A stretch of DNA of 24,000 nt from Dehalococcoidia bacterium (GTDB lineage Bacteria; Chloroflexota; Dehalococcoidia; GIF9; AB-539-J10). The DNA lies in contig JAUWOR010000001.1 in assembly GCA_030612025.1 (NCBI GenBank), positions 151,790-175,789 of the forward strand. Reading direction: 5' to 3'. Positions 1-22,830 of this stretch are shown here, in pieces. The position numbers and the translations under genes are program-made. Within the stretch, counting starts at the first letter, position 1. Every line of letters starts with the position of its first letter. The notes beneath the pieces were generated by a model. The model saw only the letters and a program-made list of their open reading frames with translations, ran no database searches and had not been told where the DNA came from.

Positions 1-595
1 AATCTTTTAATTTCTGAAATATGCTCCTGCCCAACACAGGATTTATTCCCGCGGCTGGTTCGTCAAGAAGCAAAAGCGTCGGCTTAGCCATAAGCCCCCT
101 GGCAACTTCCAGAAGCTTTCTCTGTCCTCCAGAAAGCTCACCAGCAGGGGAAAAAGCCCATTGAGCCAGCTCCGCAAGCTCCAGGATATCTAGAGCTTCT
201 TGGATTAGTCCTTTTTCCTGCTCCTGCCACTTCCTCCTCAGGAAAAGGCTATTTAATAATCTATCGCCCTGGTGTCCACGTGCTGCCACCAGCATATTGT
301 CTAATACGCTCATTTGAAGAAAGAGGCGCGGCAATTGAAAGGCATTAACCAGCCCCAAAGCATAAATTTGGTGAGGAGCTAAGTTGCTGATGCAGTTACT
401 ATTGAAATAAATATTTCCCTGATCAGGTCTGTAGAGACCGAGGATGGTATTAAACAAGGTAGTCTTGCCACTGCCATTAGGTCCCACCAAGCCACAAATG
501 CCACCCTGTTTGACATCCAGGCTTACACCATTGACGGCATAAACGCCACCAAAATGCTTGCTAACTTCTTCTATCTTTAATAATGTTTCTTCCAT
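1..595 (-). CDS. livG: Branched-chain amino acid ABC transporter ATP-binding protein (LivG-like); 3' end lies outside the window
   Basis: Absent from the ORF track because it is open at the window edge. My minus-strand translation from ATG 593-595 gives MEETLLKIEEVSKHFGGVYAVNGVSLDVKQGGICGLVGPNGSGKTTLFN (Walker A), then ...LSGGQRKLLEVARGLMAKPTLLLLDEPAAGINP (ABC signature and Walker B). It lies directly downstream of livH-livM. An alternative in-frame ATG sits at 605-607. Confidence 0.85.
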   Translation of the reverse strand, partial: MEETLLKIEEVSKHFGGVYAVNGVSLDVKQGGICGLVGPNGSGKTTLFNTILGLYRPDQGNIYFNSNCISNLAPHQIYALGLVNAFQLPRLFLQMSVLDNMLVAARGHQGDRLLNSLFLRRKWQEQEKGLIQEALDILELAELAQWAFSPAGELSGGQRKLLEVARGLMAKPTLLLLDEPAAGINPVLGRSIFQKLKD

Positions 596-694
596 ATAAA
601 TCGCCATGACCTTGCCAATTTTCGTCTGTCGGGATGCATGCTATCAAGATGGATGAGATTATATCGCTAAAACTTCTTTATATCTAGCCCCTTT

Positions 695-775
695 TTACAG
701 GGGCCATATAAAGACAAAGAGACGAATACCAAAGTGCTTGCTAACTTCCCTTATTTTTAGTAGCGCTTCTTTCAT
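695..775 (-). pseudogene. Relic 5' end of a livG-like gene (dead-end 26-codon ORF overlapping the livM 3' end)
   Basis: Minus-strand ATG at 773-775 reads MKEALLKIREVSKHFGIRLFVFIWPL*. The first 16 aa parallel the working LivG N-terminus MEETLLKIEEVSKHFG. The block 728-750 matches 549-571 with one mismatch. Confidence 0.4.
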
Positions 776-1685
776 AGCGAGCTAACTCTATTGCCTTTGT
801 CTTAATCCGGCTTTCCTTTAACAAACCCTGTGGTCGGTAAAGCAAAACAAAGATAATTAAAGCACCAAATAAAATATATTGCAAGCTACTGGGGTCAATG
901 GGCAAAACTAAATAATCCTTAGCCATATTCGCCCCTCGATCGAATAGCTCCACCAGCCCAGCACCTAACAATACTCCCCAGTTATTAGCTGGTCCTCCCA
1001 AAAGAACCATTATCCACACGGTAAAGGTAACCATAGGCATAAACATGCCAGGGAGGACGCACTGAAGATATTGAGCATAAAGCCCACCAGCTACTCCGGC
1101 TATAGCCGAACCTAACATAAGTGCTTGAGCTTTGTATTTAGCCCTATCCTTTCCCAATGCTTCAGCAGCTACCTCATCCTCCCTTATGGCTCGCATTGCC
1201 CTACCATAAGGGGAGTTGGCCAAAAGTTGAACCACGAGGAAACAGATAAACAAACAAAAATAGACCAGGCCTATATTCACTAGAGCGTCAACACGATGAG
1301 AGGCGCCCATCAGAGAAATAGCTGGTGAAACTGTTACCCCCCAATCACCCCCAGCAATCCAATCTTCAGATTTAACAATCAATCTCAAGATTTCACCAAA
1401 AGCTAAGACTACTATAGCTAAGTAATCCGCTCTCAACCTCAGAGCAGGCAAAGAAATAAGCAAGCCAAAAATAGCTGAGATTAAGGCGCCAGCGATAAGG
1501 CAAAGATAAAAGGGAAGACCAGTTTGAGACAGGAGGGCATAGGTGTAAGCACCAATGAGAAAGAAAGCCACCTTACCAAAATTGGCAAGCCCGGCAAAGC
1601 CAAACTCCAGGTTCAGGCTCAGAGCTACTATGCCAAAGATGCCAATATAGACAATAAGGTCGAGAACATAAAGTAGGGGATCCAA
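741..1685 (-). CDS. livM: Branched-chain amino acid ABC transporter permease (LivM-like)
   Basis: 314-aa polytopic membrane ORF of LivM type (e.g. ...LRLRADYLAIVVLAFGEILRLIV...), lying between LivH and LivG. There is a 1-nt gap to the livH stop. Confidence 0.85.
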   Translation of the reverse strand: MDPLLYVLDLIVYIGIFGIVALSLNLEFGFAGLANFGKVAFFLIGAYTYALLSQTGLPFYLCLIAGALISAIFGLLISLPALRLRADYLAIVVLAFGEILRLIVKSEDWIAGGDWGVTVSPAISLMGASHRVDALVNIGLVYFCLFICFLVVQLLANSPYGRAMRAIREDEVAAEALGKDRAKYKAQALMLGSAIAGVAGGLYAQYLQCVLPGMFMPMVTFTVWIMVLLGGPANNWGVLLGAGLVELFDRGANMAKDYLVLPIDPSSLQYILFGALIIFVLLYRPQGLLKESRIKTKAIELARYERSATKNKGS

Positions 1686-1686
1686 A

Positions 1687-2574
1687 TCAAGCTCTCCTAA
1701 ACAACATAGCTAATCCCTGCGGCCTCACAATTAGAGTTATTATCAAAATCAAGAAAGCTATACCTATACGATATGCCGTAGAAAGCCCCAGAGCTATCAA
1801 CCCTACCACCCCAATATTTTCAGCTAGTCCAATGATGAAGGCTGCGGCTATGGCACCATAAAAGTTGCCAATGCCGCCAAGTATAGCAACGGCGAACATA
1901 GGTAATATGATATCCCATCCCGTCATAGGCCAGATCTGGGTATCGGCAGCGCGAAATATGCCAGCAATGGCTGCCAGTCCGGCACCAATAAACCAGGTTA
2001 GCCAGATCACCCGGTCAACACTGATTCCCGAGGCCAAGGCAAGCTCTGGATTGCTAGAAGTCGCCCTTATTGCCTTGCCTATCTTGGTTTTCACCAAAAT
2101 AAAGTGCATGATAACTGCTAGAGCTAGGGCAGTAAAAATAAGCCATAGCCATAGACCAGTAACCCTTAGTGGACCTACAGCATAAGAAGACCAGGTAGTG
2201 GTAAAATACAAAGGTCTCCAAGTCCAAATGCCGCCAATGGAATGCCTCAGGATAAAGCCCAAGGCAATGGAAGCCACCATAAGGTGGATGATGGTAGCTC
2301 CCTTTTTGGCTAAAGGCTGGAAGATGCCACGGTAACATAAAAAACCCACTATCCCAGTGACCAAGAAGGCAACAATAAGAGCTGCTGGCAAACCTAACCC
2401 TAATTGCTCCGCCACAAAGTAGCCGATAAAAGCACCTAAGGTAATAAGCTCCGCATGGGCAAAATTGGGGAAATTAGACAGACCATAGGTTAAGGTAAGC
2501 CCTACCGCCCCAATGAGATAAAGGCTTCCCGTAATCACGGAATTAAATAGCACTTGTGCCCAGTTGACTGTCAT
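1687..2574 (-). CDS. livH: Branched-chain amino acid ABC transporter permease (LivH-like)
   Basis: 295-aa polytopic membrane ORF of LivH type (N-terminal ...LFNSVITGSLYLIGAVGLTLTYG...), first gene of the permease pair. Confidence 0.85.
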   Translation of the reverse strand: MTVNWAQVLFNSVITGSLYLIGAVGLTLTYGLSNFPNFAHAELITLGAFIGYFVAEQLGLGLPAALIVAFLVTGIVGFLCYRGIFQPLAKKGATIIHLMVASIALGFILRHSIGGIWTWRPLYFTTTWSSYAVGPLRVTGLWLWLIFTALALAVIMHFILVKTKIGKAIRATSSNPELALASGISVDRVIWLTWFIGAGLAAIAGIFRAADTQIWPMTGWDIILPMFAVAILGGIGNFYGAIAAAFIIGLAENIGVVGLIALGLSTAYRIGIAFLILIITLIVRPQGLAMLFRRA

Positions 2575-2576
2575 AG

Positions 2577-2647
2577 CTAGGGTAATAAATAAGATTTTAG
2601 CTCAGTTAAGTTGCTAATAGCCTCCTGATGGTCATCCCCAGCCCTAT
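2577..2647. repeat. Left copy of the 71-bp direct repeat (HAD 3' end)
   Basis: Manual alignment with 10185-10255 at a constant offset of 7608 nt gives 66/71 identical. Mismatches are at 2577, 2582, 2621, 2640 and 2643. Similarity decays immediately beyond 2647. Confidence 0.85.
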
Positions 2648-2714
2648 GGAGCCAGAAAGTGCCCTCAGGAGCCAAGTTTCCAGCCGTGGTCAACACGCTC
2701 CAAATATAACAAAG
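2577..2714 (-). pseudogene. Relic 3' end of a HAD-hydrolase gene (no 5' part), ending 2 nt before the livH start
   Basis: The minus-strand frame reads ...PEGTFWLHRAGDDHQEAISNLTELKSYLLP*. The intact HAD C-terminus at 10185 reads ...INAFHIDRAGDDHQESISNLTELKSYLLA*. The frame is closed upstream by TAA. Convincing homology covers only about 2577-2660. Confidence 0.55.
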
Positions 2715-2844
2715 TTACCACCAGCTTGAGTAGACAAGAGCAACACCCTGCTAGGTTACTTCCACAAAATTTGACCAAGAGCCTAGTTTTTCAAAGAATA
2801 TTTAGCAGTTTTCTCCACGATACATTAGCACACTTTTGGGCAAA

Positions 2845-3885
2845 TTAAATTAGGATTTTCCCGTTCTCTATAACTGCCTTGCCATCAAATTTCAGTGTTG
2901 GTTTTGGAATCACAAAGTCTTGATGGAGATCTGCTGTTACCTTCCCACCCATGTGCGAGCTGTCCCCTACCGCGATATGAACTGTTTCCCTTATTTTTTC
3001 TGCTTCAAGTACATTGTCAGGACGCCTTGCGTTGGGATTCGTGCCAATGCCCAGCTCGGCGCAATTTCTGCGGGAGAGATAAGGTTCCTCATTTTTCCCA
3101 CAGGCTAGCATCTCTCTGAACTCATTACCCACCTTACCCCCACTGATAACTTTTGTCACCTGCCCATCTTGGAAAACAAAGGTCATATCTTTTTCCAGAT
3201 TTGCGTACCAGCCTTTTTCCACCACCAAATTTCCATTCGTCGTCCCTTCCAGGGGCACAGAAAAAACCTCGCCAGAGGGCAGATTTCCAAAGGCACCTTT
3301 TTCGGTAAATATACCATCATCTATCAGCCCTTTTCTTCCTTCCAAGCTGAATCTTAGGTCTGTGCCGCCTGGGGATGTTACCGTGACCTCTCTTGCTTGG
3401 TCAACCAGTTTTGCTATCCTCTGGCATTCCTCGTGTACCTTGGTGAAGTCTGTCGCCATCGGCCCTCCGGGATAGAACATCTCGGGAAGAAACATAGGCA
3501 TGCTCGCAATGCGCGTGCCCGATTTGGTAGCGTTCTCTCGTGCTTCTGTATGGGAAAGTGAGTAACTCGTTATAGCAATGGCTACATCAGCTTCCTTCAA
3601 TTTTTCTTCTACTTCTTTTCCAGGCTCTGCGCCATGCCTTCCCACAGAGGGATAGGCGTAAAATTGCACCTTGCAACTTGGGAACTTCTCACCTGCTATC
3701 TCGCTCACCATCCTGGCGAGGAGGGACCTTTCCACCACTTCAGCAAGTTCTTTGCTTTCCTTCTTTACCCACTCCTCGGTGGTTGGCACATCTGTAATTA
3801 CAAGTAGCCTCTCACCACTTTTGACGCCCATATTCACTTTGAACATGTTTATCACACCTGGTGCAACTTTTTCCCTCTCTACCAT
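2845..3885 (-). CDS. M29-family (AmpS/PepS/NicX-like) metalloenzyme, annotated generically as an aminopeptidase-like protein
   Basis: 346-aa ORF with the family-typical C-terminal region ...AELGIGTNPNA...ETVHIAVGDSSHMGGKVTADLHQDFVI (H-x-D metal-ligand pattern). A strong SD (aggagg) lies 8 nt upstream of the ATG. The length is closer to the NicX-like dioxygenase branch than to ~410-aa aminopeptidases; that comparison is from memory. Confidence 0.75.
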   Translation of the reverse strand: MVEREKVAPGVINMFKVNMGVKSGERLLVITDVPTTEEWVKKESKELAEVVERSLLARMVSEIAGEKFPSCKVQFYAYPSVGRHGAEPGKEVEEKLKEADVAIAITSYSLSHTEARENATKSGTRIASMPMFLPEMFYPGGPMATDFTKVHEECQRIAKLVDQAREVTVTSPGGTDLRFSLEGRKGLIDDGIFTEKGAFGNLPSGEVFSVPLEGTTNGNLVVEKGWYANLEKDMTFVFQDGQVTKVISGGKVGNEFREMLACGKNEEPYLSRRNCAELGIGTNPNARRPDNVLEAEKIRETVHIAVGDSSHMGGKVTADLHQDFVIPKPTLKFDGKAVIENGKILI

Positions 3886-3889
3886 GTTA

Positions 3890-4207
3890 TCAGCCTCCTG
3901 TGCTTTTCAATTTATCAACAAAATCCAGGATTAAACTATCGAGAAACTTGATGAACTCGTCTTTATCGCCCATTACAGAATACTTGTTATCGTTTATTTT
4001 CTTTCTTATCTCCACCAAGAATTCATCCGCTATATCTGCCTCTTCAAGAATCTCAATTAATCTGCTCGCCCCGTCGATCAATCTGAATGGGCCATATAGC
4101 TTTGGTTCCTCAACACAGTTTCTTGCCGAGGTTACCAGAAAGGCGAGCAGATTAAAAAAATCACCTTTTAGTTGACCCTTATCTATTGTGCCAGTGGACG
4201 ACTTCAC
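3890..4207 (-). CDS. Small conserved hypothetical protein (resembles DUF6092-type proteins from memory; function unknown)
   Basis: 105-aa ORF with a GTG start preceded by ggggag. It overlaps the nitroreductase stop by 29 nt and ends 4 nt before the M29 start. The helical-looking segment FFNLLAFLVTSARNCVEEPKLYGPFRLIDGASRLIEIL is the basis of the family guess. Confidence 0.5.
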   Translation of the reverse strand: MKSSTGTIDKGQLKGDFFNLLAFLVTSARNCVEEPKLYGPFRLIDGASRLIEILEEADIADEFLVEIRKKINDNKYSVMGDKDEFIKFLDSLILDFVDKLKSTGG

Positions 4208-4694
4208 TAACTCCCCTTCTTCTTGGCGGTTTTGGTATCTTTTCAGGATAGCCCAATGTGATCAGCAGTTCTGGATTTATGTGCTCTGGCAGGTCAAATA
4301 ACCTCTTTATGGCACTTATGCCAAAAGACCTTACGGTGCAAGAACCGATTCCAAGGTCATGGCTAGCCAGCATGATGTTCTGGCTAGCCATGGAGATGTC
4401 CATTAGAGATAATGTGTCTCTGCCAAGTTCACCGCAAAGCTCATATGCTCTTTTCAAGTCCCTGCAGACGATTACTATCGCTGCCGGATTCCCAAATATC
4501 CCCGGCGAGAAAGTCTTTATCTTTTTGATGTCATCGTCATTCTCTACCACAATAAATTCCCACGCCTGGGCATTACCTCCAGAGGGAGACCAGATGGCAG
4601 CCTCCACTATCTTCTCAAGCTGTTCCTTGGGAATTTTTCTATCCTGGTAGCTTCTTACGCTTCTTCTCCCCTTTATGGCGTCAAAGGTTTTCAT
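4179..4694 (-). CDS. Nitroreductase-family flavoprotein
   Basis: MKTFDAIKGRRSVRSYQDRKIPKEQLEKIVEAAIWSPSGGNAQAWEFIVV is a classic nitroreductase N-terminus. I chose the start at ATG 4692-4694 (SD ggggga 7 nt upstream) rather than the track start at 4736. Confidence 0.8.
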   Translation of the reverse strand: MKTFDAIKGRRSVRSYQDRKIPKEQLEKIVEAAIWSPSGGNAQAWEFIVVENDDDIKKIKTFSPGIFGNPAAIVIVCRDLKRAYELCGELGRDTLSLMDISMASQNIMLASHDLGIGSCTVRSFGISAIKRLFDLPEHINPELLITLGYPEKIPKPPRRRGVSEVVHWHNR

Positions 4695-4728
4695 TAAATT
4701 CCCCCATGTGCCCAAGAAAAGGGTGAGT

Positions 4729-5130
4729 TTACACAATCAGTCGTGCTTTGGCCTCTCTTACTGCCTTGTAGAGGTTGAAAATGCTCCACAAAAGTGTAAC
4801 TAGACAAACCGCGAACGCTACGTATGGAACTGCCGTCCCTACACCTTCAGTGAAGAAAGGAGCCAAAAACATAGCACATCCAGTAAGCCCCAATGAGAGC
4901 ACAATCCAGTTATGCTGTACGCATTTATTGCCAAGCTCCCATAAATCTTCTTCCTTGCTAATGCGCGGGAATATCAATGCCATACCTACCAACTGGATTA
5001 TACCTATCGCCAGATAGACAATCCCGGTAAAGACGTTTTGAGACCATGCCACGGCTGCCAATACCAAAAGCACAATGGGAAAAATCAGGATTATGCCACT
5101 GGAAATTTTTACATATCTTTTGAATTCCAT
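4729..5130 (-). CDS. Small 4-TM membrane protein of unknown function, immediately downstream of the permease
   Basis: 133-aa ORF with four hydrophobic spans. Its start is 6 nt after the NCS1 stop, suggesting co-transcription. Confidence 0.6.
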   Translation of the reverse strand: MEFKRYVKISSGIILIFPIVLLVLAAVAWSQNVFTGIVYLAIGIIQLVGMALIFPRISKEEDLWELGNKCVQHNWIVLSLGLTGCAMFLAPFFTEGVGTAVPYVAFAVCLVTLLWSIFNLYKAVREAKARLIV

Positions 5131-5136
5131 TCTATA

Positions 5137-6504
5137 TCACGCTCCTGTCTTGTCTATTGTGTGTTCTCCCAGATCCATCTTTGCGCCAGCTTTGTCGCAT
5201 GCGATGGCAATTACAATGTAAAGCACCACTCCAAGTATCAAGCAAGTAAGGCACATTATTCCCCAACTTTCAGGTATAACCCATTTACCTAGCACCGTTG
5301 CCAGAATAGCTGAAAACCATCCAATCCAGTTTACCTTACCAAATTTCATGCCTGGCTGGAACTGATATCTCTCTCTAAGAGGCACTCCTTTGTACCAGCG
5401 GTACAACCAAAAGTCAGCGATCAAAACTCCACCCGCCGCAGGCAGGAATGTTCCGAGGAGCGTCAAAAATGCCATGAAGGGGTCCATAGCCGCCCCCCAA
5501 ACACGTGCGATCACTGCCGCTAGCGCTACGCCTATTGCCCCGGCAATGAGGACGATGTACTTCCTTTGAATGGGTAACCATAGATTTATAGCTAGGGAGG
5601 TGCTATATATATTGTTGTCATTGGTTGACCATTGCCCTAGAATCGCCATCAGGAATGCACCGATACCGGCTCCGGCAGCAAGCAACGCCCCGGCAATATT
5701 CGCCTCACCTGTTACCAAGGTTATCGCGGCTGCCCCTGAAAGCATGTAAACCTGCAAAATCATAAGTTGAATTGTCCATGCTGCAGCACCATGCCAAATC
5801 TTTTTCGCGAACCGACAGATATCGGCTGTAATGATAGCTCCCACAACATACATACCGACAACTTCGGTCACACCTACACCAAAGGGAACTGGGCTTACTG
5901 GTGCGATACTGGCAAGTCCGGCGAAGCCGCCCCCCTGTTGCACGCCTATCATGACTCCGAAGCCTGCGAGCAACATAAAGAAAGGGACCGCTAAATAACT
6001 GAAAAATGCCAGACCTCTAAAACCGATGTAGGCTGTAATTAGCATTAATATGCCGCCCCATATTGAGGCCCAAAACACAGTAGCCCACGGTGCCTCGGGG
6101 AAAATGGTGCTCATGATAACGCCAAACAGCCACGTCTGTACAGTGAACCAACCAAGGGCAGGTATACCAGAAACAATTGTCCCCCACACTTGTGAACCTA
6201 CATTTCCAAATGCGGGTCTCAAGTTTACATATGTAGAGCATCTAGAGATTCCACCAATTGGAGCCGTAAGCCCTCCTATAACTGCCAATATCGCCGAACC
6301 CACAACCGCAACCCATATCGCATCCTTGAGATAAAACTGCAGACCGAGTACTGACCCTCCCCATAGCGCGGCGATACAACACAACACACCTGTATAGGTA
6401 TAAAACATGGTAAGAAGAGACCTAGTCTCTTTCTTTGGTACAGGCACCAGTGCGTAATCGCCATACTTATCTTCCCAGGGCCAAACTTCTTTATTCTTTC
6501 TCAT
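5137..6504 (-). CDS. NCS1-family permease (purine-cytosine / hydantoin-type transporter)
   Basis: 455-aa ORF with about 12 TM spans and a cytosine-permease-like layout (N-terminal ...ETRSLLTMFYTYTGVLCCIAALWGG...). It sits next to a hydantoin-type racemase. Confidence 0.85.
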   Translation of the reverse strand: MRKNKEVWPWEDKYGDYALVPVPKKETRSLLTMFYTYTGVLCCIAALWGGSVLGLQFYLKDAIWVAVVGSAILAVIGGLTAPIGGISRCSTYVNLRPAFGNVGSQVWGTIVSGIPALGWFTVQTWLFGVIMSTIFPEAPWATVFWASIWGGILMLITAYIGFRGLAFFSYLAVPFFMLLAGFGVMIGVQQGGGFAGLASIAPVSPVPFGVGVTEVVGMYVVGAIITADICRFAKKIWHGAAAWTIQLMILQVYMLSGAAAITLVTGEANIAGALLAAGAGIGAFLMAILGQWSTNDNNIYSTSLAINLWLPIQRKYIVLIAGAIGVALAAVIARVWGAAMDPFMAFLTLLGTFLPAAGGVLIADFWLYRWYKGVPLRERYQFQPGMKFGKVNWIGWFSAILATVLGKWVIPESWGIMCLTCLILGVVLYIVIAIACDKAGAKMDLGEHTIDKTGA

Positions 6505-6613
6505 GTTAACACCTCTTCAATTAGTTCTCGTTTTTCCCTTCCTTCCCTGACAGTCCCTTCACCATCTTAGTAGCTACCTATTATGTTTTTTATATCTACA
6601 TCTTAATCTATCA

Positions 6614-7345
6614 TCACAACCTCCCCAATATATTCCTTTCTTTATCCGGCGGAGGCATATATGTTTTTTTGCTCTGCTTCAAACCGAGGGCTATTAGCAT
6701 CTCGAGATATTTTACCGCGACTGCCACGGGATATATTACCGGGACTCCATAACCTTTCTTCTTCAGGGCGTCCGATAAATCATCTGCTACCCCAAGCATC
6801 CCTGTGCACCCTAAGACGATAGCATGCGCACCATCCTCCGCTATTGCCTTTATTGACTCGTCAACTAAAGCGCTTGTCAGCTTTTTGACATCCGTTAGAT
6901 CAAGAACTGGTATGTTAATAAATCTTACAGATGCCAGCTTGCTGCCCAATCCAACTTCCATAACCCTATTTTCGAAAACTGTCAATGCGTTCTCCAATAC
7001 GGTTACAATAGAGAATCTGTGTGCCAAATCCGCAGCACAAAGCATGGATATACTGCCAGGACCTACCACCGGGATATCAAGTTTTTCTCTCAGTGCATCC
7101 AGAGCAGGATCACACATACAGTCTGTAATTACCCCATCGAAACCATCGGACTGGGCCTTCTCTGCCACCTTTATGATTCCGGGAGCAACCAGCATCTCAT
7201 CATAGCTCGATTCTATCGATGCCGTCCCATATTCGATAGCTTCAACATCAATTTCTGTGCCTTTAGAGGCAAACTTTTCTACCTCTTCTCGAGTGGGTGC
7301 TACAAATTCTTTTGTCGTTACCGGCACTATTACCTTAATTTTCAT
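6614..7345 (-). CDS. Asp/Glu/hydantoin racemase family protein (hydantoin racemase-like)
   Basis: 243 aa with two catalytic-type cysteine motifs, ...GVITDCMCDPAL... and ...AIVLGCTGMLG..., at the spacing expected for hydantoin racemases. Confidence 0.8.
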   Translation of the reverse strand: MKIKVIVPVTTKEFVAPTREEVEKFASKGTEIDVEAIEYGTASIESSYDEMLVAPGIIKVAEKAQSDGFDGVITDCMCDPALDALREKLDIPVVGPGSISMLCAADLAHRFSIVTVLENALTVFENRVMEVGLGSKLASVRFINIPVLDLTDVKKLTSALVDESIKAIAEDGAHAIVLGCTGMLGVADDLSDALKKKGYGVPVIYPVAVAVKYLEMLIALGLKQSKKTYMPPPDKERNILGRL

Positions 7346-7428
7346 GCTGATTCATCCCTTGCTTGCTCTCCTGTTATCTTTTCACCTCAAATTCGTACTT
7401 CAACTCTATAGTAGGAAATAAGATATAA

Positions 7429-7453
7429 GAGGAAACTTCATGCAGTTTTCCTC
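7429..7453 (-). terminator. Putative intrinsic terminator after the second DUF917 gene
   Basis: The minus-strand RNA folds as GAGGAAA-N11-UUUCCUC (7-bp stem), starts 1 nt after the stop codon (7455-7457) and is followed by UUAUAUCUUAUUU. Confidence 0.45.
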
Positions 7454-7454
7454 A

Positions 7455-8492
7455 TTACCCTACCGGAACATACCCACCTTTATATCCGATACTTTCAAGG
7501 ACATGCTTAAATACTTGGAATCCTTCAGGCGGCCTCCACTTCTCGTGGGCTTTTTTCCCTATTACTGCTACATCCATTCCTTCCGCTACGTCCGCATTTG
7601 TAAGAGGTTCTCCATCTGTTCTCAACCAACAGATAGAGTCAGGCACTGTTACCAGTGGCTTGTCCTTTCTCCATGCCATCATATTCTCGTTTTTGTAGTC
7701 CACAATGATGTCTTCTACAAAGACCCTACCATAATCAAAGCCTGCCTTAACCTCTTCCGTCTTCTTGGCAATCTTCCCCCTGGCAAGTACAATACCATCT
7801 ATAGCTTCTGTTGCTGCCTCGACCACATCTCTTCCAGATGCTTTTGCTTCTCTTATACCTTTTCCCACTTTCTCTGCTAGCGACAGTGCACCTGGTATCA
7901 CCACCTCTTTAAGTTGTTTTCCTGTCATTAGATGACAGGCTAACCCAGCAGTCATACCAAATACTGTGGTTACCGCCCTGCCCAGCTCTTCACCCATGTA
8001 GGCATCAGTTACGTATAGAATGGCAGAATTCCCTTTTGAATCTGCCAGCGAAATTGGAGAAACAGGAATGCCGTGAATATAAAACATGGTCATTTCCAGT
8101 TCTGGTACCGCTCTTCCAGCACCATCACCGTCTACGACCGGCAAACCTTTAACAGCCCCCGCATGTAATGGAGTCACAGAATTAAAACCGCCCGTTTCTA
8201 CAGGAACCACGTAGTCTATTTTCTTGCCTGTCACCTCCGCCAATCTTTCCAGTGCGGGTACCTCTTCTCCCTTCCACCCTTCCTTAAGCAGGACAACAGG
8301 GGAGCCCATGCCAGCCACAACAGCCACCGCACTATCATCAGGTACGTCGCCCGGTTCAACCAAAATAACCTCTCTTATTTCTTCTACAAGTTGTAAACCT
8401 GTTCTTGAAGATCCACCTCCACCCGCCCCGAGTAGTGTTGCTCCTCTTATTATGTCCTCTATTTCTTGTTGGTGTAATATTCTCTTCATCAC
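7455..8492 (-). CDS. DUF917 family protein (paralogue B)
   Basis: Carries the DUF917 hallmarks GATLLGAGGGGS, VETGGFNSVTPL and VVDGDGAGRAVPELEMTMF. 345 aa. Confidence 0.8.
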   Translation of the reverse strand: MMKRILHQQEIEDIIRGATLLGAGGGGSSRTGLQLVEEIREVILVEPGDVPDDSAVAVVAGMGSPVVLLKEGWKGEEVPALERLAEVTGKKIDYVVPVETGGFNSVTPLHAGAVKGLPVVDGDGAGRAVPELEMTMFYIHGIPVSPISLADSKGNSAILYVTDAYMGEELGRAVTTVFGMTAGLACHLMTGKQLKEVVIPGALSLAEKVGKGIREAKASGRDVVEAATEAIDGIVLARGKIAKKTEEVKAGFDYGRVFVEDIIVDYKNENMMAWRKDKPLVTVPDSICWLRTDGEPLTNADVAEGMDVAVIGKKAHEKWRPPEGFQVFKHVLESIGYKGGYVPVG

Positions 8493-8645
8493 TTCCCTCC
8501 TTCAAGAAATATGCCTGTTTCGGTTTTAACATGAACACTAGAGTAAGTCAAGAGGGTGTACTCGTTCATTGATTAGTTACACTTTAGCTCCTTTCAACTT
8601 CAGCTTGGCATTAAATAAATTTTTCCTCGATATGCCTCACCCCCT

Positions 8646-9731
8646 TTATAACAAGGTTAGATAATCACCCTTGTAGCCTAGTCTCACCAATATATGTTTC
8701 CAGCAATTAAATCCGTCGGGGGTTCTCCTCCAGGGTTCCGGGGCAGAAATTCCCAAAATAGCTATTTCCATACCTTCCTTGGTATCTGCATTTGTAACAG
8801 GCTCTCCTGCGGTTGTCATCATAGCTATCAAGTCAGGAACCATTATTACCGGCTTTTCATCTTGCCAGGCAATCATATTCTCGTTGACTGAGTCTATAAT
8901 GAATATTTTGCCTTGGTAATTTGTAATACCCTCGATAGTTGTCCGGCCAATGTCAAACCCTTCAGCTGTTCTTGTCTCAATTTTCTTGATATTGCCCCTA
9001 AAAATCTCTTTCCCCCCAGTAATGCTTATAACCTCTTTCACAGTGTCCCTGCCGCTAGCTTTTGCTTTTCTTATCGCCTTGCCTACTTCTTCACATTTCG
9101 AAATAGAGTTTGGCACAAGGCAATTTCTTATAGTGGCAATGTCAACTATCCAGGTGGCAAATGCGGCTAACATTCCGAACGAGACTGCCGCGGTTCTAGC
9201 CATCTTCTCTGCTGAGGCAGTATCAAGCGGGTCTTTTAAGTATGCCACCAGAACATCCCCGGCCTTATTGGCAACCACCAGCGGGCTAGTAGGAATCCTG
9301 TATATGGGATAAAGCCCGGTGCTTAGCTCGGGAACAGCACGTCCATTACCATCAGCATCAACAACAGGGATGCCTTTTTGTGATGCTACATAAAGTGGTG
9401 TCATGGTATTGAGACCACCAATTTCACCTGGCATCAAATAAGCTAGATTGATTCCCCCTACGGCAGCCATATTCCTGATTGCTTCATAGGCAAATATAGC
9501 CTCAGGACCGAAGCCCCTTTCAATCATGACTTTTGGGGAGCCTATCCCAGCTACTACCACTGCATTGGCTCTATCTGGCAAGTCTTCTATATTAAACATT
9601 TCTATTTCATTTTCTATTTGTTTAACAAGATTTAAGCCATCACGAGGAGAACCACCTCCGCCAGCACCAAAAATTGTTGAACCCCAGACTATATCCTCTA
9701 GCGCTGTTTTCCCTAATAACCTCCTTGCCAT
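8646..9731 (-). CDS. DUF917 family protein (paralogue A)
   Basis: Carries the DUF917 hallmarks GSTIFGAGGGGS, GEIGGLNTMTPL and VVDADGNGRAVPELSTGLY. 361 aa. SD ggagg lies upstream of the ATG. Confidence 0.8.
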   Translation of the reverse strand: MARRLLGKTALEDIVWGSTIFGAGGGGSPRDGLNLVKQIENEIEMFNIEDLPDRANAVVVAGIGSPKVMIERGFGPEAIFAYEAIRNMAAVGGINLAYLMPGEIGGLNTMTPLYVASQKGIPVVDADGNGRAVPELSTGLYPIYRIPTSPLVVANKAGDVLVAYLKDPLDTASAEKMARTAAVSFGMLAAFATWIVDIATIRNCLVPNSISKCEEVGKAIRKAKASGRDTVKEVISITGGKEIFRGNIKKIETRTAEGFDIGRTTIEGITNYQGKIFIIDSVNENMIAWQDEKPVIMVPDLIAMMTTAGEPVTNADTKEGMEIAILGISAPEPWRRTPDGFNCWKHILVRLGYKGDYLTLL

Positions 9732-9741
9732 TTTATACCTC

Positions 9742-9921
9742 CTAAATCAGATGCTTTCCATCCTTAATTCCGGTTTTACCATCAATTACTAGAGTTGGAT
9801 TTCCCATAATCCCATCCAGACGCGCTGGTGCTTTTACCTTGCCACCAATTGTGCTGTTATCTCCTATAGCTATTTTGTCGCCTCTATCCTTGCCGCTTCT
9901 ACCATTGCATCTGCCTTCAGT
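9742..9921 (-). pseudogene. 5'-truncated second M29-family gene (C-terminal ~46 aa retained)
   Basis: Below the ORF-track size cutoff. My translation is ...GDKIAIGDNSTIGGKVKAPARLDGIMGNPTLVIDGKTGIKDGKHLI*, which aligns with the C-terminus of the 2845-3885 product (ETVHIAVGDSSHMGGKVTADLHQDFVIPKPTLKFDGKAVIENGKILI*). The frame is closed by TAA at about 9922. The stop lies 10 nt before the DUF917-A start. Confidence 0.6.
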
Positions 9922-10184
9922 TTAGTTAATCACCTTATTATCTCTACCTTATAATCTCCTCTTAGCACAAGAGGCTAATTTAAACACTAACAAAATGTAC
10001 TGTAAGTTGTAAAGAAAGATGGTTGAATTTTTATATTGAACTAATTAGAGACGCCCATCATGCGATGGGCCAGCTAAATATGAAGGTAGTTAGAGGCTCC
10101 TGCGATTCTAGATAACTTAGTAGCATCGCTGTCTTCATTTAATGCCAAAAATTATAAACGCTACTCCAATTTTAGGCAAGCATA

Positions 10185-10255
10185 TTAGGCTAATAAATAA
10201 GATTTTAGCTCAGTTAAGTTGCTAATAGACTCCTGATGGTCATCCCCTGCTCTAT
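10185..10255. repeat. Right copy of the 71-bp direct repeat (3' end of the intact HAD gene)
   Basis: See 2577-2647: 66/71 identical at a constant offset of 7608 nt. Confidence 0.85.
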
Positions 10256-10856
10256 CAATATGGAAAGCGTTTATACCCACCTGCTTGGGGTTAAGAAAAT
10301 CGAATTGCCAGTTATCGCCTACATGGACAACCTGACTTGGCTTGACATTCATCGCCTGGCACATCTGGAGATAAAAAGCGGGGGTCTTTAATTGCCTATA
10401 ATGCGAGGTTGAAGAAAAAACCTGAGTAAAATAAGGTTCCACATCCGGTAATAAATAATGCAACAGTTCCAATGGCGTGCCTGAGGCAATGATTAACTTA
10501 TATTGATTAGCTAAAGAGGAAAGGACTTCTGTTACCTCAGGATAATAGAATACTTTATCCTGGCAACTTTGTATCACTGGTTCAGGAGCGCCTAAGTGCA
10601 AATACCTAAACCAGTAGTTTATATCATACCACTCCAGCCTTTGGTCACCGATTCTATCATACTCCATAGCCACGATTTCCTTCGCCTGGACAAGCTCAAT
10701 GCCTTTCTTTTGGGCATAAATGGCTGGTATAGCCTCATGCCAAACAGCCTGACTGAAATCAGGCGTCACTAGCGTTCCTTCGGCATCAAAGGAGACTATT
10801 CTGATACACCCTGGAAAAATTCCATCTCTCAGGTGACCCCAACCAATTTGGTTCAT
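10185..10856 (-). CDS. HAD-superfamily hydrolase
   Basis: 223 aa. Motif I is IVSFDAEGTLV, where the second acidic residue is Glu rather than the usual Asp. A motif III/IV-like ...VVHVGDNWQFD is also present. Confidence 0.8.
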   Translation of the reverse strand: MNQIGWGHLRDGIFPGCIRIVSFDAEGTLVTPDFSQAVWHEAIPAIYAQKKGIELVQAKEIVAMEYDRIGDQRLEWYDINYWFRYLHLGAPEPVIQSCQDKVFYYPEVTEVLSSLANQYKLIIASGTPLELLHYLLPDVEPYFTQVFSSTSHYRQLKTPAFYLQMCQAMNVKPSQVVHVGDNWQFDFLNPKQVGINAFHIDRAGDDHQESISNLTELKSYLLA

Positions 10857-11061
10857 TTAAGTTGCTAATATTAGCATAATTAGAAGCCAGAGGTCTATTT
10901 GCTAACTTATGCTTAGCAAAGGTAAAATAGCTTGAGGGAGTTATGATGAAGGGTTTTTTGAACTTAAACCGCTTCAAACATGGCAGGGCGATAAAGCAAG
11001 GTAGTAAACAAAAGGCTAATCTGCAAGGCAAGAAGAAAGTTAAAGGAAAAGTGTTTAAACT

Positions 11062-11143: not shown

Positions 11144-11147
11144 GAGA

Positions 11148-11270
11148 CCGTTTAAAAATGTAGTTGCCTGATTTATCAGGCACAGTCGCCCAATAAATTG
11201 GGCAACTACAAAAATTTGGGGGTGAAACGCCTCTGAGATGGCTGAAATTGAACGGGGAATCAAAATTAAA
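11148..11270 (-). repeat. 123-nt structured repeat, copy A (flanks in reverse orientation, core in 'flop')
   Basis: Its reverse complement aligns base-for-base with 22831-22953 (6 mismatches in 91 flank/stem positions). The exception is the 32-nt core (11169-11200), which is identical to 22901-22932 on the SAME strand, so it is inverted relative to the flanks. The core is bounded by the 9-bp inverted repeat gtagttgcc/ggcaactac. Confidence 0.85.
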
Positions 11271-11361
11271 CAGCATGTCAGAATGACAGGAGGCGAAGGG
11301 CTCAAAATAACAAGGCCACAGGCAAAATTAAAGAGCTTCTCAGAGGAAAGGGGTAAATTTT

Positions 11362-12082: not shown

Positions 12083-12233
12083 GGCCGTTTAATTTTGCCT
12101 CATCCAGTTTTAATACTCTTCACCTCCAAGATTTTCGTAGTGCGACCCTTTAGGGTCGTGCACGAGGCTACCCCGTGTAGTAATCTTCGCTACTACACAG
12201 GGCTAAAGCCTCGCACTACATTTTTAAACACCT
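12083..12233 (+). repeat. Composite GTAG...CTAC nested-hairpin element carrying a nested 30-nt hairpin insertion
   Basis: Same architecture as 22354-22445: ggc[c/t]gtttaattttgcctcatcc ... gtagtgcg-gaccctttagggtc-gtgcac-gaggctaaagcctc-gcactac-atttttaaacacc. Between 12170 and 12206 it carries an extra ccccGTGTAGTAatcttcgcTACTACACag flanked by a duplicated GGCTA. The left arm has a further ~24-nt insert. Confidence 0.8.
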
Positions 12234-12347
12234 TTAAACACCCTCTTTTAGTAAGGATATTCTTAATAGCATCTCGTTGTCAATATCCAAGAAAACCCAG
12301 ATGGCGTCGTAGCTGTGGGGTTTTAGACCTGTTCTCCGCCTAATTAC

Positions 12348-18163: not shown

Positions 18164-18179
18164 ATTTGTACATCACATT

Positions 18180-18240
18180 GTAGTGCGTGGCTTTAGCCTC
18201 GTGCCCGGTAACGATGCACGACCCTAAAGGGTCGTACTAC
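18180..18240 (-). repeat. GTAG...CTAC two-hairpin element, long variant, inverted orientation
   Basis: gtagtgcg-tggctttagcctcg-tgcccggtaacgatgcac-gaccctaaagggtc-gtactac is the reverse orientation of the 21787-21848 copy. It shares the same 14-nt inter-hairpin insert. Confidence 0.8.
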
Positions 18241-18284
18241 ATTTATGAGATTGCCATGCTTCGCTCGCAGTGACGAAAAGGAGA

Positions 18285-18316: not shown

Positions 18317-18335
18317 TTTGGCTGCTAGGCTCAGT

Positions 18336-20006
18336 TCAGCGAGTAGCGGCTCGCTCGGCTTCAGTTACCGGCACAGCCTCCACTACAACCCTGGGAGCTC
18401 CAAGCAAGGAAAGCACTCTATCTGAAAGGTTAATATGCGGCGGCTTCAGGCTGCCCAAATCAGCACCCTCAGCCTGACGTTGAGAGATATAGCGAGCAAA
18501 AGCACCTTGAGGAAGAAAGGTAACCTCTATAGGCTTTAGGCCAAGCACAGTCTCCGGGTCACCGTAGACCCTGTATTGGTTATAGTGGTATACGCTATCC
18601 AGCTTTTGCAGTTCGCCATATACAGTTGCCGCTACAGCTTTTTCGCTGGCAATATAATTTTCCTTGAGTTCCAGATAGAGATGTAATATTGCCCCGTCTC
18701 CGATTGCTTCTTTACGGGCTGTCCAATCTTTATAAGGAATGCCGCTGTTTTCAATCGCTTCCCAAATCACTTTTTCTGTAAGACGCCCAAATCCGGAAAT
18801 ATCAATACGGTCATCAGCCCGGCTATAAAACAGCACCTGGGGGATATCAATGTTCAACTTCTCATTTCGCCGCGAAGTTATCCTTATTATATCGCCAATC
18901 CTATACCTGACAAAGGCCCCACCATGAAAATTAGTAAGAACTATCTCATAATTCTCACCCTCTTTTACTTCATCCAGTAAAATAGTTTTCGGCTGGTAAG
19001 AATGGTCTAATTGCCACTTGAAGCATTCCCCTTCAGGGATAAATTCAAAGAAGCTGAAAGTGGGGATAAAAGTCATGCCTTCGTAATCCCAGGTTTGTAT
19101 AGCACAATAGCCTCCTTCACAACTGGCATAATGCTCCAGAGGGCGTCTGCCCCATAACTCCTCCACTCTTTTCTTGAAAATTGTGGCATCACTGCCAGCG
19201 CATATTATCCCTCGCACTGCCCACAGGTCTTTGGGCAACAAAGAGCGACGAGCCAGCTTGCTCCTAACTAATCCTCTGGCTACTCGAAATAGTGCCCCGG
19301 GATGAGCTAACAAAAAACGGATGCTTATGTCTCCCGTTCCCCTCTTAATTTGCTCTCCCACATAGACTAATGCCGAGCCTAGGCCACCGAAACCATCAAG
19401 GCCACGGTATAGAGCTTCCTGGAAGCCAAGCTTTATGCACTGCTCAAAAGATAACTCTTCTCCCTGGGAAGGCAACAAGTCGCAGTTGATTGTTTCTTTT
19501 GTTAAGCAACCTAAAAAACCCGTCCCATACTCTGGAGCCCCTGTAGTATGCAACACCTTTAAGTGTTCCTTAAGCCTGGAGAGATCACCTTTACTCTTAC
19601 AGGTGGAAAAAATAATCTCGGCTACCAGCACCCTCTCTAATTCACGAACAAAACCCACCGAGAAGGGTATCCATTTAATATAGGATTTTTCCGACGTACC
19701 TGAAGTTCTCACCCATCTGGCAACCTTGGCTGGTAAGACGTCCTCCCTTCTTTCTATAAGTTCAGGGCAATAATCAGCATAGATGGTTAATGGCACCTGC
19801 TCTCGGAACTCCTCCACCGTGGTAGGCATGGCACCACGCATGACCTTCTTGCCGAGCTTACAATTTTTCAGCAGCTCAATCTGCTCCAAAAGCAACCTCT
19901 TCTGGATATTCATAAATCGCTCCAAGCTGACGTCAATAAAACCACAGCACGTCTGCCATAATTCTTCCTTTTCCCCCCGGCGTAATAACTCAATTGGCCT
20001 GGTCAT
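18336..20006 (-). CDS. GH3-family adenylate-forming enzyme (acyl acid-amido synthetase-like), paralogue B
   Basis: 556 aa. GH3/ANL motifs are WVRTSGTSEKSYIKWIP, YASCEGG and VRYRIGDIIRITS...IPQVLFYSRADD, plus a C-terminal LKPPHIN. SD aggaggtg. Confidence 0.85.
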   Translation of the reverse strand: MTRPIELLRRGEKEELWQTCCGFIDVSLERFMNIQKRLLLEQIELLKNCKLGKKVMRGAMPTTVEEFREQVPLTIYADYCPELIERREDVLPAKVARWVRTSGTSEKSYIKWIPFSVGFVRELERVLVAEIIFSTCKSKGDLSRLKEHLKVLHTTGAPEYGTGFLGCLTKETINCDLLPSQGEELSFEQCIKLGFQEALYRGLDGFGGLGSALVYVGEQIKRGTGDISIRFLLAHPGALFRVARGLVRSKLARRSLLPKDLWAVRGIICAGSDATIFKKRVEELWGRRPLEHYASCEGGYCAIQTWDYEGMTFIPTFSFFEFIPEGECFKWQLDHSYQPKTILLDEVKEGENYEIVLTNFHGGAFVRYRIGDIIRITSRRNEKLNIDIPQVLFYSRADDRIDISGFGRLTEKVIWEAIENSGIPYKDWTARKEAIGDGAILHLYLELKENYIASEKAVAATVYGELQKLDSVYHYNQYRVYGDPETVLGLKPIEVTFLPQGAFARYISQRQAEGADLGSLKPPHINLSDRVLSLLGAPRVVVEAVPVTEAERAATR

Positions 20007-20045
20007 AGCACACCTCCTATACCGTTTGCCATATTGCCATCCAGC

Positions 20046-21719
20046 TCAGCGAGCAGCGGCTCGCTCAGCTTCGGTTGTCGGCACAGCTTCCACCACAACC
20101 CTGGGAGCTCCGAGCAAGGAAAGCACTTTATCAGAGGGATTAATATGCGGCGGCTTCAGATGCCCTAAATCGGCTCCTTCAGCCTGCCGCTGGGAGATAT
20201 AGCTGGAAGAGGCACCTTGAGGAAGGAAAGTAACCTGTATCGGCTTTAGATCAAGCAGTTTTGCCGCCTCACCATAGGCAAACTTATAAAGATTGAAATT
20301 ATATATGCTATCTAATTTCTGAAACTCCTCGTACACCGCGGCTGTCACGGCTTGTTCGCTGGCGATGTAGTCATCTTTAAGCTCAAGATAGATGTGCAAT
20401 GCCGGCTTGTCACCAATTACTTCCTTACGGGCTACCCAATCGGCATAAGGAATGCCCGTGTTTTCAATCGCCTCCCAGATGAGTTTCTCAGTAATGTGGC
20501 CGAAGCCAAATATATCAATAAGTTCATCAGCTCGCCTCTCAAATACCATTTGGGGGATATCAATATTCAGCTTTTCATCTCGCAGTGAAGTTATCCTGAC
20601 CATATCACCGATTCTATATCTAACCAAGGCACCACCATGAAAATTGGTGATGACTATCTCATAATTCTCACCAGCTTTCACCTCTTCCAGCAAAACAGTC
20701 TTGGGTTGATATGAGCGGTCTAATTGCCACTTGAACCATTCCCTCTCTGGAACAAACTCATAAAAGTTAAGGCTGGGAACAAAAGTCATCCCTTCATAAT
20801 CCCAGGCCTGCATAGCACAAATACCGCCTTCTGTGCTGCTATAGATCTCGAGCGGAAATTTTCCCCAAAGTTCCTCCACCCTCTTCTTAAATACTCCTGC
20901 ATCTACGCCGCTACCCGCAATCCCTTTGATTGACCATAGGTCTTTGGGCAACATAGGACGACGAGCTAATTTGCTTTTGACTAATGCCTTTGTCACGCGG
21001 AACAGCGCCCTAGGATGAGACAACAGAGGGCGAATATTTGTCTTTCCTCTTTTCTGTTTGAACCGCTCCCCGATAGCGACTAGGACAGAGGGCAAGCCAC
21101 CGAAGACATCAATTCCTTGATACAACCCCTCCTCAAAGCCAGCTTTTATCCTCTGCTCAAAAGACATCTCTTCCCCTTTAGAAGGCAACAAATCACAACC
21201 TATAGCCTGTCGCACTAAGCAAGCCATTATACCTGATGCATACTCTGGAGGTCCCATGGTGAATAACATTCTTAAGTGCTCTTTAAGTCTGGAAGTATCA
21301 CCTCGACTGCTACAGATCCCAAGGAGAGCAAGCCCTCCGGCCACTTTTTCATATTCACGGGCAAAATCCTCCGACATAGGCACCCACTTAACATCATACT
21401 CTCCGGTCTTGCCCGAAGTACGCACCCAGTGAGCAACCTTGGCTGGCAAGACATCTTCCCTTTTCTCCACCAGCTCAGGGAGATAATCACCATAGGTGGT
21501 TAAAGGCACCTGCTCTCGAAATTCCTCCACAGTCTCGGGCATAGCCCCACGCATTACCTTCCGGCCCAACTCACAATTCTTTAATAGCTCAATTTGCTCC
21601 AGCAGCAATCGTTTCTGGATGTCCATAAACTGCTCCAAGCTGAGGTCAATAAAGCCGCAGCACATCTGCCATAGTTCCTCTTTTCTCCCCTGCCGCAGTA
21701 AATCAATCGGCCTAATCAT
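20046..21719 (-). CDS. GH3-family adenylate-forming enzyme, paralogue A
   Basis: 557 aa. Motifs are WVRTSGKTGEYDVKWVP, YSSTEGG and VRYRIGDMVRITS. SD aggaggtg. A 39-nt gap separates it from paralogue B. Confidence 0.85.
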   Translation of the reverse strand: MIRPIDLLRQGRKEELWQMCCGFIDLSLEQFMDIQKRLLLEQIELLKNCELGRKVMRGAMPETVEEFREQVPLTTYGDYLPELVEKREDVLPAKVAHWVRTSGKTGEYDVKWVPMSEDFAREYEKVAGGLALLGICSSRGDTSRLKEHLRMLFTMGPPEYASGIMACLVRQAIGCDLLPSKGEEMSFEQRIKAGFEEGLYQGIDVFGGLPSVLVAIGERFKQKRGKTNIRPLLSHPRALFRVTKALVKSKLARRPMLPKDLWSIKGIAGSGVDAGVFKKRVEELWGKFPLEIYSSTEGGICAMQAWDYEGMTFVPSLNFYEFVPEREWFKWQLDRSYQPKTVLLEEVKAGENYEIVITNFHGGALVRYRIGDMVRITSLRDEKLNIDIPQMVFERRADELIDIFGFGHITEKLIWEAIENTGIPYADWVARKEVIGDKPALHIYLELKDDYIASEQAVTAAVYEEFQKLDSIYNFNLYKFAYGEAAKLLDLKPIQVTFLPQGASSSYISQRQAEGADLGHLKPPHINPSDKVLSLLGAPRVVVEAVPTTEAERAAAR

Positions 21720-21786
21720 AGTTACACCTCCTACTAAATTTGAGGCTATTCATTTCATTCCTCTAAGACGCATCTGTTTTCCTAAC

Positions 21787-21848
21787 GTAGTGCGACCCTT
21801 CAGGGTCGTGCATCGCTAACCGGGCACGAGGCTAAAGCCTCGCACTAC
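21787..21848 (+). repeat. GTAG...CTAC two-hairpin element, long variant
   Basis: gtagtgcg-gacccttcagggtc-gtgca[tcgctaaccgggca]c-gaggctaaagcctc-gcactac, with tail gtttttgaacagcc. Confidence 0.8.
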
Positions 21849-21989
21849 GTTTTTGAACAGCCTCAATTATTAGCTTGAGGACACTATGACAGGGCTTAAT
21901 TTAATTGGGAAGTGATTATGTTCTAGAAGATAGTTCTATTTGAAGCTGTAAAAAGTATGACTGCGGGGAAAATGTGGGAAAGGTGTTTC

Positions 21990-22353: not shown

Positions 22354-22445
22354 GGCTGTTTAATTTTGCCTCATCCGGATTCTCGTAGTGCGACCCTTTA
22401 GGGTCGTGCACGAGGCTAAAGCCTCGCACTACATTTTTAAACACC
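22354..22445 (+). repeat. Canonical (shortest) GTAG...CTAC two-hairpin element with arms
   Basis: ggctgtttaattttgcctcatccggattctc-GTAGTGCG-GACCCTttAGGGTC-gtgcac-GAGGCTaaAGCCTC-GCACTAC-atttttaaacacc. The outer 8-bp stem (22385-22392 with 22425-22432) is perfect. Confidence 0.85.
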
Positions 22446-22521
22446 TTCATGTTAAATAGGGGGTGACCTTTACAACCTTCTTGTTCTCAGGCACCCCCAC
22501 GATAACCGCAATGCTCAAGCC

Positions 22522-22797: not shown

Positions 22798-22830
22798 TGT
22801 CACCACTCCACTCCTATCACCTATAGGCTA

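Follow-up and report, generated by a model that had tools for sequence, protein, structure and literature searches.

How did a 7.4-kb hydantoin-type operon come to lie between a HAD hydrolase gene and livH, bracketed by two copies of the 3' end of the former? The question is raised by a 24,000-nucleotide stretch of a Dehalococcoidia bacterium genome (assembly GCA_030612025.1, contig JAUWOR010000001.1, positions 151,790 to 175,789), referred to here as the window; the genome that holds it, a 1.4-Mb assembly in 19 contigs, is designated G000. The original prediction, made from the window alone, read the repeats as the attL and attR sites of a site-specific island, while allowing for arrival by another route. 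Comparison with relatives supports the latter: the arrangement was probably created by the cell's own recombination joining two versions of a chromosomal slot, an "insertion with long target duplication", and not by site-specific integration. All genes of the region are on the minus strand, and the gene order is read from HAD through the block and an orphan HAD end to livH. The features that define the locus are:

10856..10185, minus strand: HAD hydrolase gene, intact, 223 aa, right-hand neighbour of the block
10185..10255, minus strand: right repeat copy, the TAA stop and last 22 codons of HAD (10856..10185)
10013..10184, minus strand: non-coding leader directly after the HAD stop, homologous to the leader between HAD and a substrate-binding protein (SBP) gene in relative G052, to a second copy in relative G003 and to one in relative G018
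9745..9900, minus strand: M29-family peptidase stump, the last 43-52 codons, no start, 11 nt before the start of THD2, the first intact block gene
2648..2844, minus strand: spacer, 197 nt, non-coding, single-copy, abutting the orphan at HAD codon -22
2577..2647, minus strand: left repeat copy, the orphan HAD 3' end, 22 codons and a TAG stop, 2 nt before livH
1687..2574, minus strand: livH, branched-chain amino-acid ABC permease, native downstream neighbour of HAD
1685..741, minus strand: livM, after livH
607..2, minus strand: livG, after livM

A repeat search and pairwise alignment place the direct repeat at 2578-2647 and 10186-10255, an offset of 7608, with 66 of 70 nt identical (94%), and the two copies are the only ones in the whole 1.4-Mb assembly. 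Upstream of the repeat in the gene direction, ungapped identity is 27-40% over 10-120 nt, which is the random level; downstream, one copy enters livH and the other enters the non-coding leader. The predicted pair of 71-bp repeats with this offset and abrupt ends was therefore correct, as were the descriptions of the right copy as the last 22 codons and stop of the intact 223-aa open reading frame (ORF) 10856..10185 and of the left copy as an orphan HAD C-terminus 2 nt before livH. The orphan ends in TAG, followed by CT and the livH ATG. The junction at which HAD directly adjoins livH in G001 and G002, two relatives of the same genus, has identical letters, and the left flank of the window, orphan included, aligns contiguously to both genomes at 95-96% DNA identity. 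The orphan counterpart in the related loci L053 and L054 has an in-frame stop. The left copy is thus a displaced, decaying resident HAD end, a dead fragment. It is not what remains of a longer decayed HAD copy, a candidate rejected because the 197-nt spacer scores against the HAD body as shuffled sequence does. Two independent assemblies, L052 and L139, each contain the full HAD-block-livH structure, and therefore the arrangement is not a mis-assembly.

Two further independent assemblies, L137 and L138, encode the same livH protein as the window, and each ends within the repeat, 38-46 nt before livH. A fork of the assembly graph at the duplicated HAD tail would account for the breaks, a mixed population being the other option. 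An empty site of the same species was not found by exact-protein look-ups, which gave these two assemblies and L139, full-length and occupied. Separately, 24 nt across the HAD start (10847-10870) match the middle of the repeat (10204-10227 and 2596-2619) at 21 of 24 positions, and the match is present likewise in G001, G002 and G003; it may be coincidental or a trace of an older event. An 81-codon ORF with no family (11031..10786) overlaps this stretch at the HAD start.

The state of the site before the block arrived can be read from relatives. The neighbourhood of the HAD orthologue was compared in 20 relatives, and related contigs and loci, metagenome contigs among them, were added (L numbers; the relatives of G000 have G numbers). 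The compared relatives are all fragmentary metagenome-assembled genomes, and absence means not found in those searched. HAD is followed directly by livH in G001 and G002 and, in other genera, in G015, G024, G011, G020, G009, G010 and G023; the arrangement occurs in at least eight genera. G001 and G002 have a single copy of the 70-nt segment, at the HAD|livH junction, where G000 has two. This adjacency in relatives, together with the same TAG CT ATG junction, identifies the orphan as the resident gene end. The proposed ancestral order HAD-livH is thereby borne out, with nine relatives retaining it and a junction layout that matches that of orphan and livH, and the suggested synteny check for HAD adjoining livH with one repeat copy is answered by G001 and G002. 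The M29 gene of the block is present in 8 of 118 other family genomes, in several of them in other contexts, which supports the view of the enclosed genes as a patchy accessory block.

The stretch downstream of HAD is a recombination-prone slot for alternative nutrient-uptake modules in this Dehalococcoidia family. Its common version is HAD followed by livHMGF. A second comprises HAD, the leader and an SBP/aminotransferase/ABC/SNF cassette; in G052 the leader downstream of HAD is followed by SBP and SNF transporter genes. The hydantoin-type operon is a third, patchy occupant, and other relatives have radical-SAM and recA genes with a livH remnant, a transketolase gene, an Mrr-like nuclease gene or others. 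In G018 the hydantoin block is inverted between the HAD stop and the leader (L027, which is G018:C128, and L044, which is G018:C62): M29 converges on HAD across a 34-nt gap, the order is THD1-racemase-THD2-NCS1 and onward, and no HAD-end duplicate turned up. G018 represents an independent arrangement at the same boundary.

The leader reveals where the HAD end now in use came from. It lies natively between HAD and the SBP gene in G052, upstream of SBP in G003 and beside the inverted block in G018, and it is absent from G001 and G002. The intact HAD genes of G000 and G003 end in TAA and the leader follows immediately. Since the leader is native with HAD in G052 and missing in G001 and G002, the junction of HAD stop and leader is the imported one and the orphan with its TAG, CT and ATG is the resident one. 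The functional HAD end thus appears to derive from the HAD-leader version of the slot.

The leader is ~170 nt long and contains the best sigma-70-like promoter of the region, a predicted TTGCCT-17-TATAAT (10179..10151), as well as a ~90-nt conserved core with the invariant GGAGCCTCTAACTACCTTCAT and a GC hairpin. Across three genera the leader and its homologues (L023:2194-2304, L024:8533-8643, L043:8463-8573 and L044:3037-3134) have diverged less than the HAD coding sequence next to them. In G052 and G003 the leader lies upstream of SBP/SNF transporter genes, and in G000 and G003 upstream of the hydantoin operon. Homology to G052 stops ~20 nt before the SBP ribosome-binding site, at window position ~10013. 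The leader was found in 4 of the 119 family genomes searched, G000 included, and a covariance model found no further copies in those 119; a 20-mer scan of ~185,000 species genomes gave only G003 (twice), G052 and G018. The consensus fold has almost no covariation and the single-sequence fold has a z of -1.0. No Rfam family matched the window or the leader at the gathering threshold, the sole match being a chance-level ToxI (E 0.8). A widespread riboswitch was rejected on the scan, the covariance model, the covariation and the z value, which are too little to call an RNA; the leader may be a cis-regulatory RNA or a protein-binding site.

Both ends of the cargo cut through other sequence. At the right end, the truncated terminal gene predicted at 9742-9921 is real and is an M29-family stump at ~9745-9900. 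It was identified by blastp against the C-terminus of the block's own M29 protein (E 1e-10) and by tblastn against ~60 M29 C-termini; Pfam applied to 9745-9915 alone gave no match. The stump is 51% identical over 43 aa to the intact M29 protein (3885..2845), so that the operon is bracketed by M29 3' ends, and it combines motifs of two M29 paralog types seen in distant clusters. Between leader and stump is a gap of ~110 nt, 9901-10012 being non-coding. At the left end, the junction of spacer and HAD codon -22 is identical in G000, G003, L051, L052, L056, L072, L053 and L054, the eight block-bearing loci that keep that end, and the spacer itself is 88-96% conserved among them. A repeated mobile element was considered for the spacer and rejected: it is single-copy and was found, among 119 genomes, only in G000 and G003, plus close metagenome relatives. 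In every spacer-bearing contig found, the orphan was already present. With an M29 stump at the right and a unique spacer at HAD codon -22 at the left, the cargo ends are not the termini of an element; both look like illegitimate cuts through pre-existing sequence.

What follows the orphan differs between lineages. In L051, L052, L056 and L072 it is livH. In L053 (4416-4460) and L054 (8401-8445) the orphan is followed by ~35 nt of a decayed livH 5' end and then by an SBP-aminotransferase-ABC cassette. This livH remnant is a second layer of scar that reveals the order of events: because it stands after the orphan, the hydantoin block entered the HAD|livH site first and the SBP cassette came later. 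G003 has the same block and left junction, and downstream of its orphan come another copy of the leader, an SBP...SNF cassette and acpP-fabF; liv genes were not found in its assembly, which is 82% complete. The liv genes were thus replaced after block entry at least twice, in two lineages and by different junctions.

The divergence of the genes indicates how the block travelled. Between G000 and G003, L052 and L054, the block genes have synonymous divergences (dS) of 0.02-0.13, with the exception of M29 against L054 (0.25); the neighbouring radical-SAM gene has a dS of 0.16 between G000 and G003. HAD has a dS of 0.39-0.50 between G000 and G001, G002 and L054, and livG, livM and livH have a dS of 0.06-0.14 between G000 and G001 and G002 (0.11-0.14 for livH alone). 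For livH and M29 of L056 and L072 the dS against G000 is ~0.55-0.63. Sliding-window comparisons resolve HAD into a patchwork of alleles with sharp borders: the body at 10335-10785 is 82-87% identical to G001 and the flanking 150-300 nt on each side are 96-99% identical, with patches shared pairwise among G000, G001, G002 and L054. A simple breakpoint of an imported HAD plus block was looked for and rejected, HAD being a patchwork whose last 150 nt are 96% identical to G001. The breakpoint between L052 and G000 lies inside M29 and not at the repeat. These patterns point to frequent homologous exchange among related lineages, through which the block would have spread.

The events may then have been as follows. 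DNA from a close relative, comprising a HAD 3' end with TAA, the leader, the M29 stump, the genes from THD2 to M29 and the spacer, would have entered a HAD|livH chromosome through host recombination. Homology in or upstream of the HAD 3' end would have secured one side, and at the other an illegitimate join would have connected the incoming DNA to the resident HAD gene at a point 22 codons short of the stop. The process would be homology-facilitated illegitimate recombination (HFIR) or, with an equivalent outcome, one crossover between a circularised fragment and the chromosome within the 70 nt of homology; homologous exchange across the conserved flanks would later have spread the block among related lineages and reshuffled it. 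The imported end keeps HAD intact and supplies the predicted operon promoter, and the displaced end is left dead before livH. The empty site, the common junction, the lack of an integrase, the truncation of the end gene, the foreign origin of the leader and the mosaic nature of the flanks are shown directly; in what order the joining steps took place, and whether the DNA arrived in linear or circular form, we infer.

Insertion with long target duplication was reportedly described by Nobusato et al. in 2000. Its known cases have repeats of >30 bp and no mobility genes and come mostly from competent species; the inserted unit is <20 kb, and the repeats are unique, single-copy in the empty-site genome and often overlap a gene 3' end (Furuta et al. 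2010, PMC2853133). The present locus agrees in all four respects, with a 7.5-kb unit, no mobility gene, a 70-nt repeat and two copies in 1.4 Mb. It differs in that the known cases are restriction-modification units, mostly in Proteobacteria, whereas here an eight-gene catabolic and transport operon is found in the Dehalococcoidia, and in that one repeat copy has a different stop codon and an imported promoter leader. The different stop and the imported leader point to exchange between slot versions and not to a staggered cut with fill-in. HFIR is said to have been described by de Vries and Wackernagel in 2002 and by Prudhomme et al. in 2002. In this process homology anchors one side of the foreign DNA and an illegitimate join attaches the other, with no dedicated recombinase, as is experimentally documented (PMC3240628). 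The locus would likewise have one homologous side, HAD, and one non-homologous junction, that of the spacer with HAD codon -22. At the HAD side the junction of stop and leader belongs to the other version of the slot and the HAD body has diverged (dS 0.39-0.49), yet HAD is a mosaic with G001-like last 150 nt. Laboratory HFIR, unlike the present case, typically yields short inserts and recipient deletions; here the recipient segment is kept as a duplication. The case belongs to a known kind and no new mechanism is revealed.

Several points weigh against this explanation. No donor was found in which HAD, leader, block and spacer run into non-orphan sequence, so that the illegitimate step is something we infer and do not see. 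Microhomology at the left junction is weak (shared CTTTC and ATAG-GC-GGGG). The two allele classes of the orphan differ by 18-30% and the adjoining spacer by only 8-12%, which is not fully explained; the gap suggests gene conversion from the intact copy in the lineage of G000, G003 and L051, or more than one event. An integrase with gene 3' ends as its target would also leave exactly this pair of surrogate and displaced ends, and such an integrase could have been lost before the sampled lineages diverged. Finally, natural competence is unproven in this uncultured group; homologues of ComEC and DprA are present in G000 and are permissive only.

Among the alternatives, an integrase-free mobile cassette comprising the HAD 3' end, the promoter leader, the operon and the spacer is the first to be weighed. 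Recombination between the repeats would release it as a circle, and a single crossover within 70-240 nt of homology would insert it again into HAD genes of relatives, with the gene end as a portable attachment site and the ~110-nt conserved leader, possibly a new cis-regulatory RNA, as a portable promoter or expression signal. A Campbell-type insertion would leave exactly this final structure, similarity between lineages is far higher in the block than in its flanks, the repeat in G003 (HAD end plus leader) is ~240 nt long with two almost identical copies, and the crossover in L054 lies within the 70 nt. The same data, however, fit a double-crossover exchange through the HAD and livH flanks, and the breakpoint inside M29 in the comparison of L052 with G000 is away from the repeat. 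The spacer junction is also common to the orphans of different lineages, which is what descent from one event would predict. A mobile cassette of this kind is thus considered unlikely.

Classical site-specific integration, in which an attP would have carried a surrogate HAD 3' end and the integrase and mobility genes would later have been deleted, is quite improbable. Its classic signature is a direct repeat of a gene 3' end in which one copy belongs to the intact gene and the other to a displaced fragment, and the junction position is the same in all eight block-bearing loci that keep that end. One integrative element with a surrogate gene end is prophage e14, whose insertion into icd of E. 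coli leaves the fragment icdC, and there too an intact gene with an imported 3' end is followed by cargo and a displaced pseudo-3' end in direct repeat; elements of the e14 type, in contrast, encode an integrase and genes of phages or integrative and conjugative elements and usually have foreign composition, none of which was found here. In Dehalococcoides, islands specific for ssrA were reportedly described by McMurdie et al. in 2011 as tandem and bounded by direct repeats of a conserved gene 3' end. They share the bacterial class and the 3'-end repeats with the present locus, but they use a serine recombinase and a transfer-messenger RNA (tmRNA) gene, whereas here the target is the protein-coding HAD gene and no serine recombinase was found in the G000 genome. 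Incoming replacement gene ends, with the old end left downstream as a fragment, also occur at rhs, cdiA and type VI secretion system effector loci; those swap toxin tips and immunity genes under diversifying selection, unlike the neutral gene end and metabolic cargo seen here.

Of what such an island would show, only the direct repeats derived from the target gene end are present. Pfam searches found no integrase, resolvase, transposase or other mobility gene in 2648-10184, in agreement with the earlier remark that the block lacks an integrase, and neither an integrase nor a remnant of a recombinase was found in nine related loci and assemblies carrying the block, the remnant search extending to the block and spacer. 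The tyrosine recombinases of G000 comprise two Xer-like enzymes and one fragment, with no serine recombinase or resolvase-type enzyme, and no tRNA or tmRNA target lies in the window. The block is native in composition (GC 45.5%, genome 45.6%; tetranucleotide distance at the 87th percentile of genome windows), so that the composition check suggested with the original prediction counts against import as an attL/attR island. One cargo end is a truncated gene, and the would-be surrogate end is fused to the leader of a chromosomal slot variant. The exchange point in L054 lies mid-repeat, inside the 70-nt segment, as expected of homologous exchange and not of a fixed, reused core. No second cargo occupies the site: other HAD 3' duplicates were found neither within ~10 kb of HAD in 20 relatives nor in 61 family genomes. 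The attL/attR origin is therefore unsupported, and arrival by another route is the better reading.

It is very improbable that the block and both repeats are ancestral to the genus and that relatives with HAD|livH lost the block by recombination between the repeats, which would make the polarity of insertion only apparent. Direct repeats do allow a precise deletion that restores HAD|livH, and the block is present in L056 and L072, whose livH and M29 genes lie further from G000 than G001 and G002 do in livH. Set against this are the contrast between HAD|livH in at least eight genera and the block in 8 of 118 other family genomes, the duplicated 3' fragment, which itself requires an insertion into HAD|livH, and the other orientation and gene order of the block in G018. 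Secondary loss in some lineages is possible and compatible with the recombinational origin preferred here. Capture by a transposase, such as the DDE (IS240/IS6-like) enzyme encoded 7 kb downstream between duplicated acpP-fabF 5' copies (G000:C4 ~146.9-147.8 kb), can be practically dismissed, as the block borders have no inverted repeats or insertion sequence ends, the duplication is 70 nt and not a short target-site duplication, and the transposase gene lies outside the block and is absent from related block-bearing loci.

Scars of this known kind at gene ends are common in G000. A genome-wide self-comparison (copies at least 80% identical, 45-720 nt long and 0.5-25 kb apart) gave 33 unique two-copy same-strand repeats, and in about 15 of these one copy is an ORF end (3' or 5', ORF length at least 100 aa) and its partner is non-coding. 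Examples, given as paired positions, are:

C1:110535/111164
C11:12629/21491
C13:3966/4807
C14:46452/48452
C4:36578/41147
C4:68441/69093
C5:31130/33629
C5:155871/158897

A larger scar lies ~7 kb beyond the window start (G000:C4:144177-148568; L045:4178-8568). It comprises acpP and the first 111 codons of fabF, 720 nt that are 94% identical to the intact acpP-fabF, and the duplication flanks the DDE (IS240-like) transposase gene and an AMP-binding ligase gene. If the integrase-free cassette described above were real, then together with these ~15 scars it would make homology-borne cassette traffic a main route of gene gain in streamlined Dehalococcoidia.

Under the preferred explanation, the locus is a well-bounded natural example of a streamlined uncultured Dehalococcoidia genome gaining a catabolic operon without mobile-element machinery. 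Such scars can be mistaken for att sites and lead to false calls of genomic islands; correctly interpreted, they show the polarity of gene gains and their order relative to one another. The operon came to lie behind an existing predicted promoter leader, which suggests how gained genes may be expressed at once. All eight genes of the cargo are metabolic or transport genes:

8646..9731, minus strand: THD2, DUF917 / S-methyl-thiohydantoin-desulfurase-like (S-Me-THD-like) (PF06032 and PF20906)
7455..8492, minus strand: THD1, second DUF917 / S-Me-THD-like paralog
6614..7345, minus strand: Asp/Glu/hydantoin racemase (PF01177)
5137..6504, minus strand: NCS1-family permease, cytosine/purine/hydantoin type (PF02133)
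4729..5130, minus strand: 133-aa protein, no family assignment, kept within the block in relatives
4179..4736, minus strand: nitroreductase-family protein (PF00881)
3890..4207, minus strand: DUF6092 protein
2845..3885, minus strand: M29/NicX-like metalloenzyme, last block gene

An integron-like ~58-bp cassette junction with the core TGTAATTACA was considered for the block borders and rejected, as no border matches; in the window the core occurs exactly at 3793 (in M29) and with one mismatch at 7124 (in the racemase gene), a count within chance. Palindromic repeats tagged with GTAG and resembling miniature inverted-repeat transposable elements occupy intergenic positions to the right of HAD (11145-11274, 12130-12236, 18179-18257, 21780-21865, 22378-22449 and 22827-22956); they have dozens of copies genome-wide and none at the block borders. 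The same part of the window also contains two tandem paralogous units (18332-21641), 1.7 kb apart and 72-81% identical.

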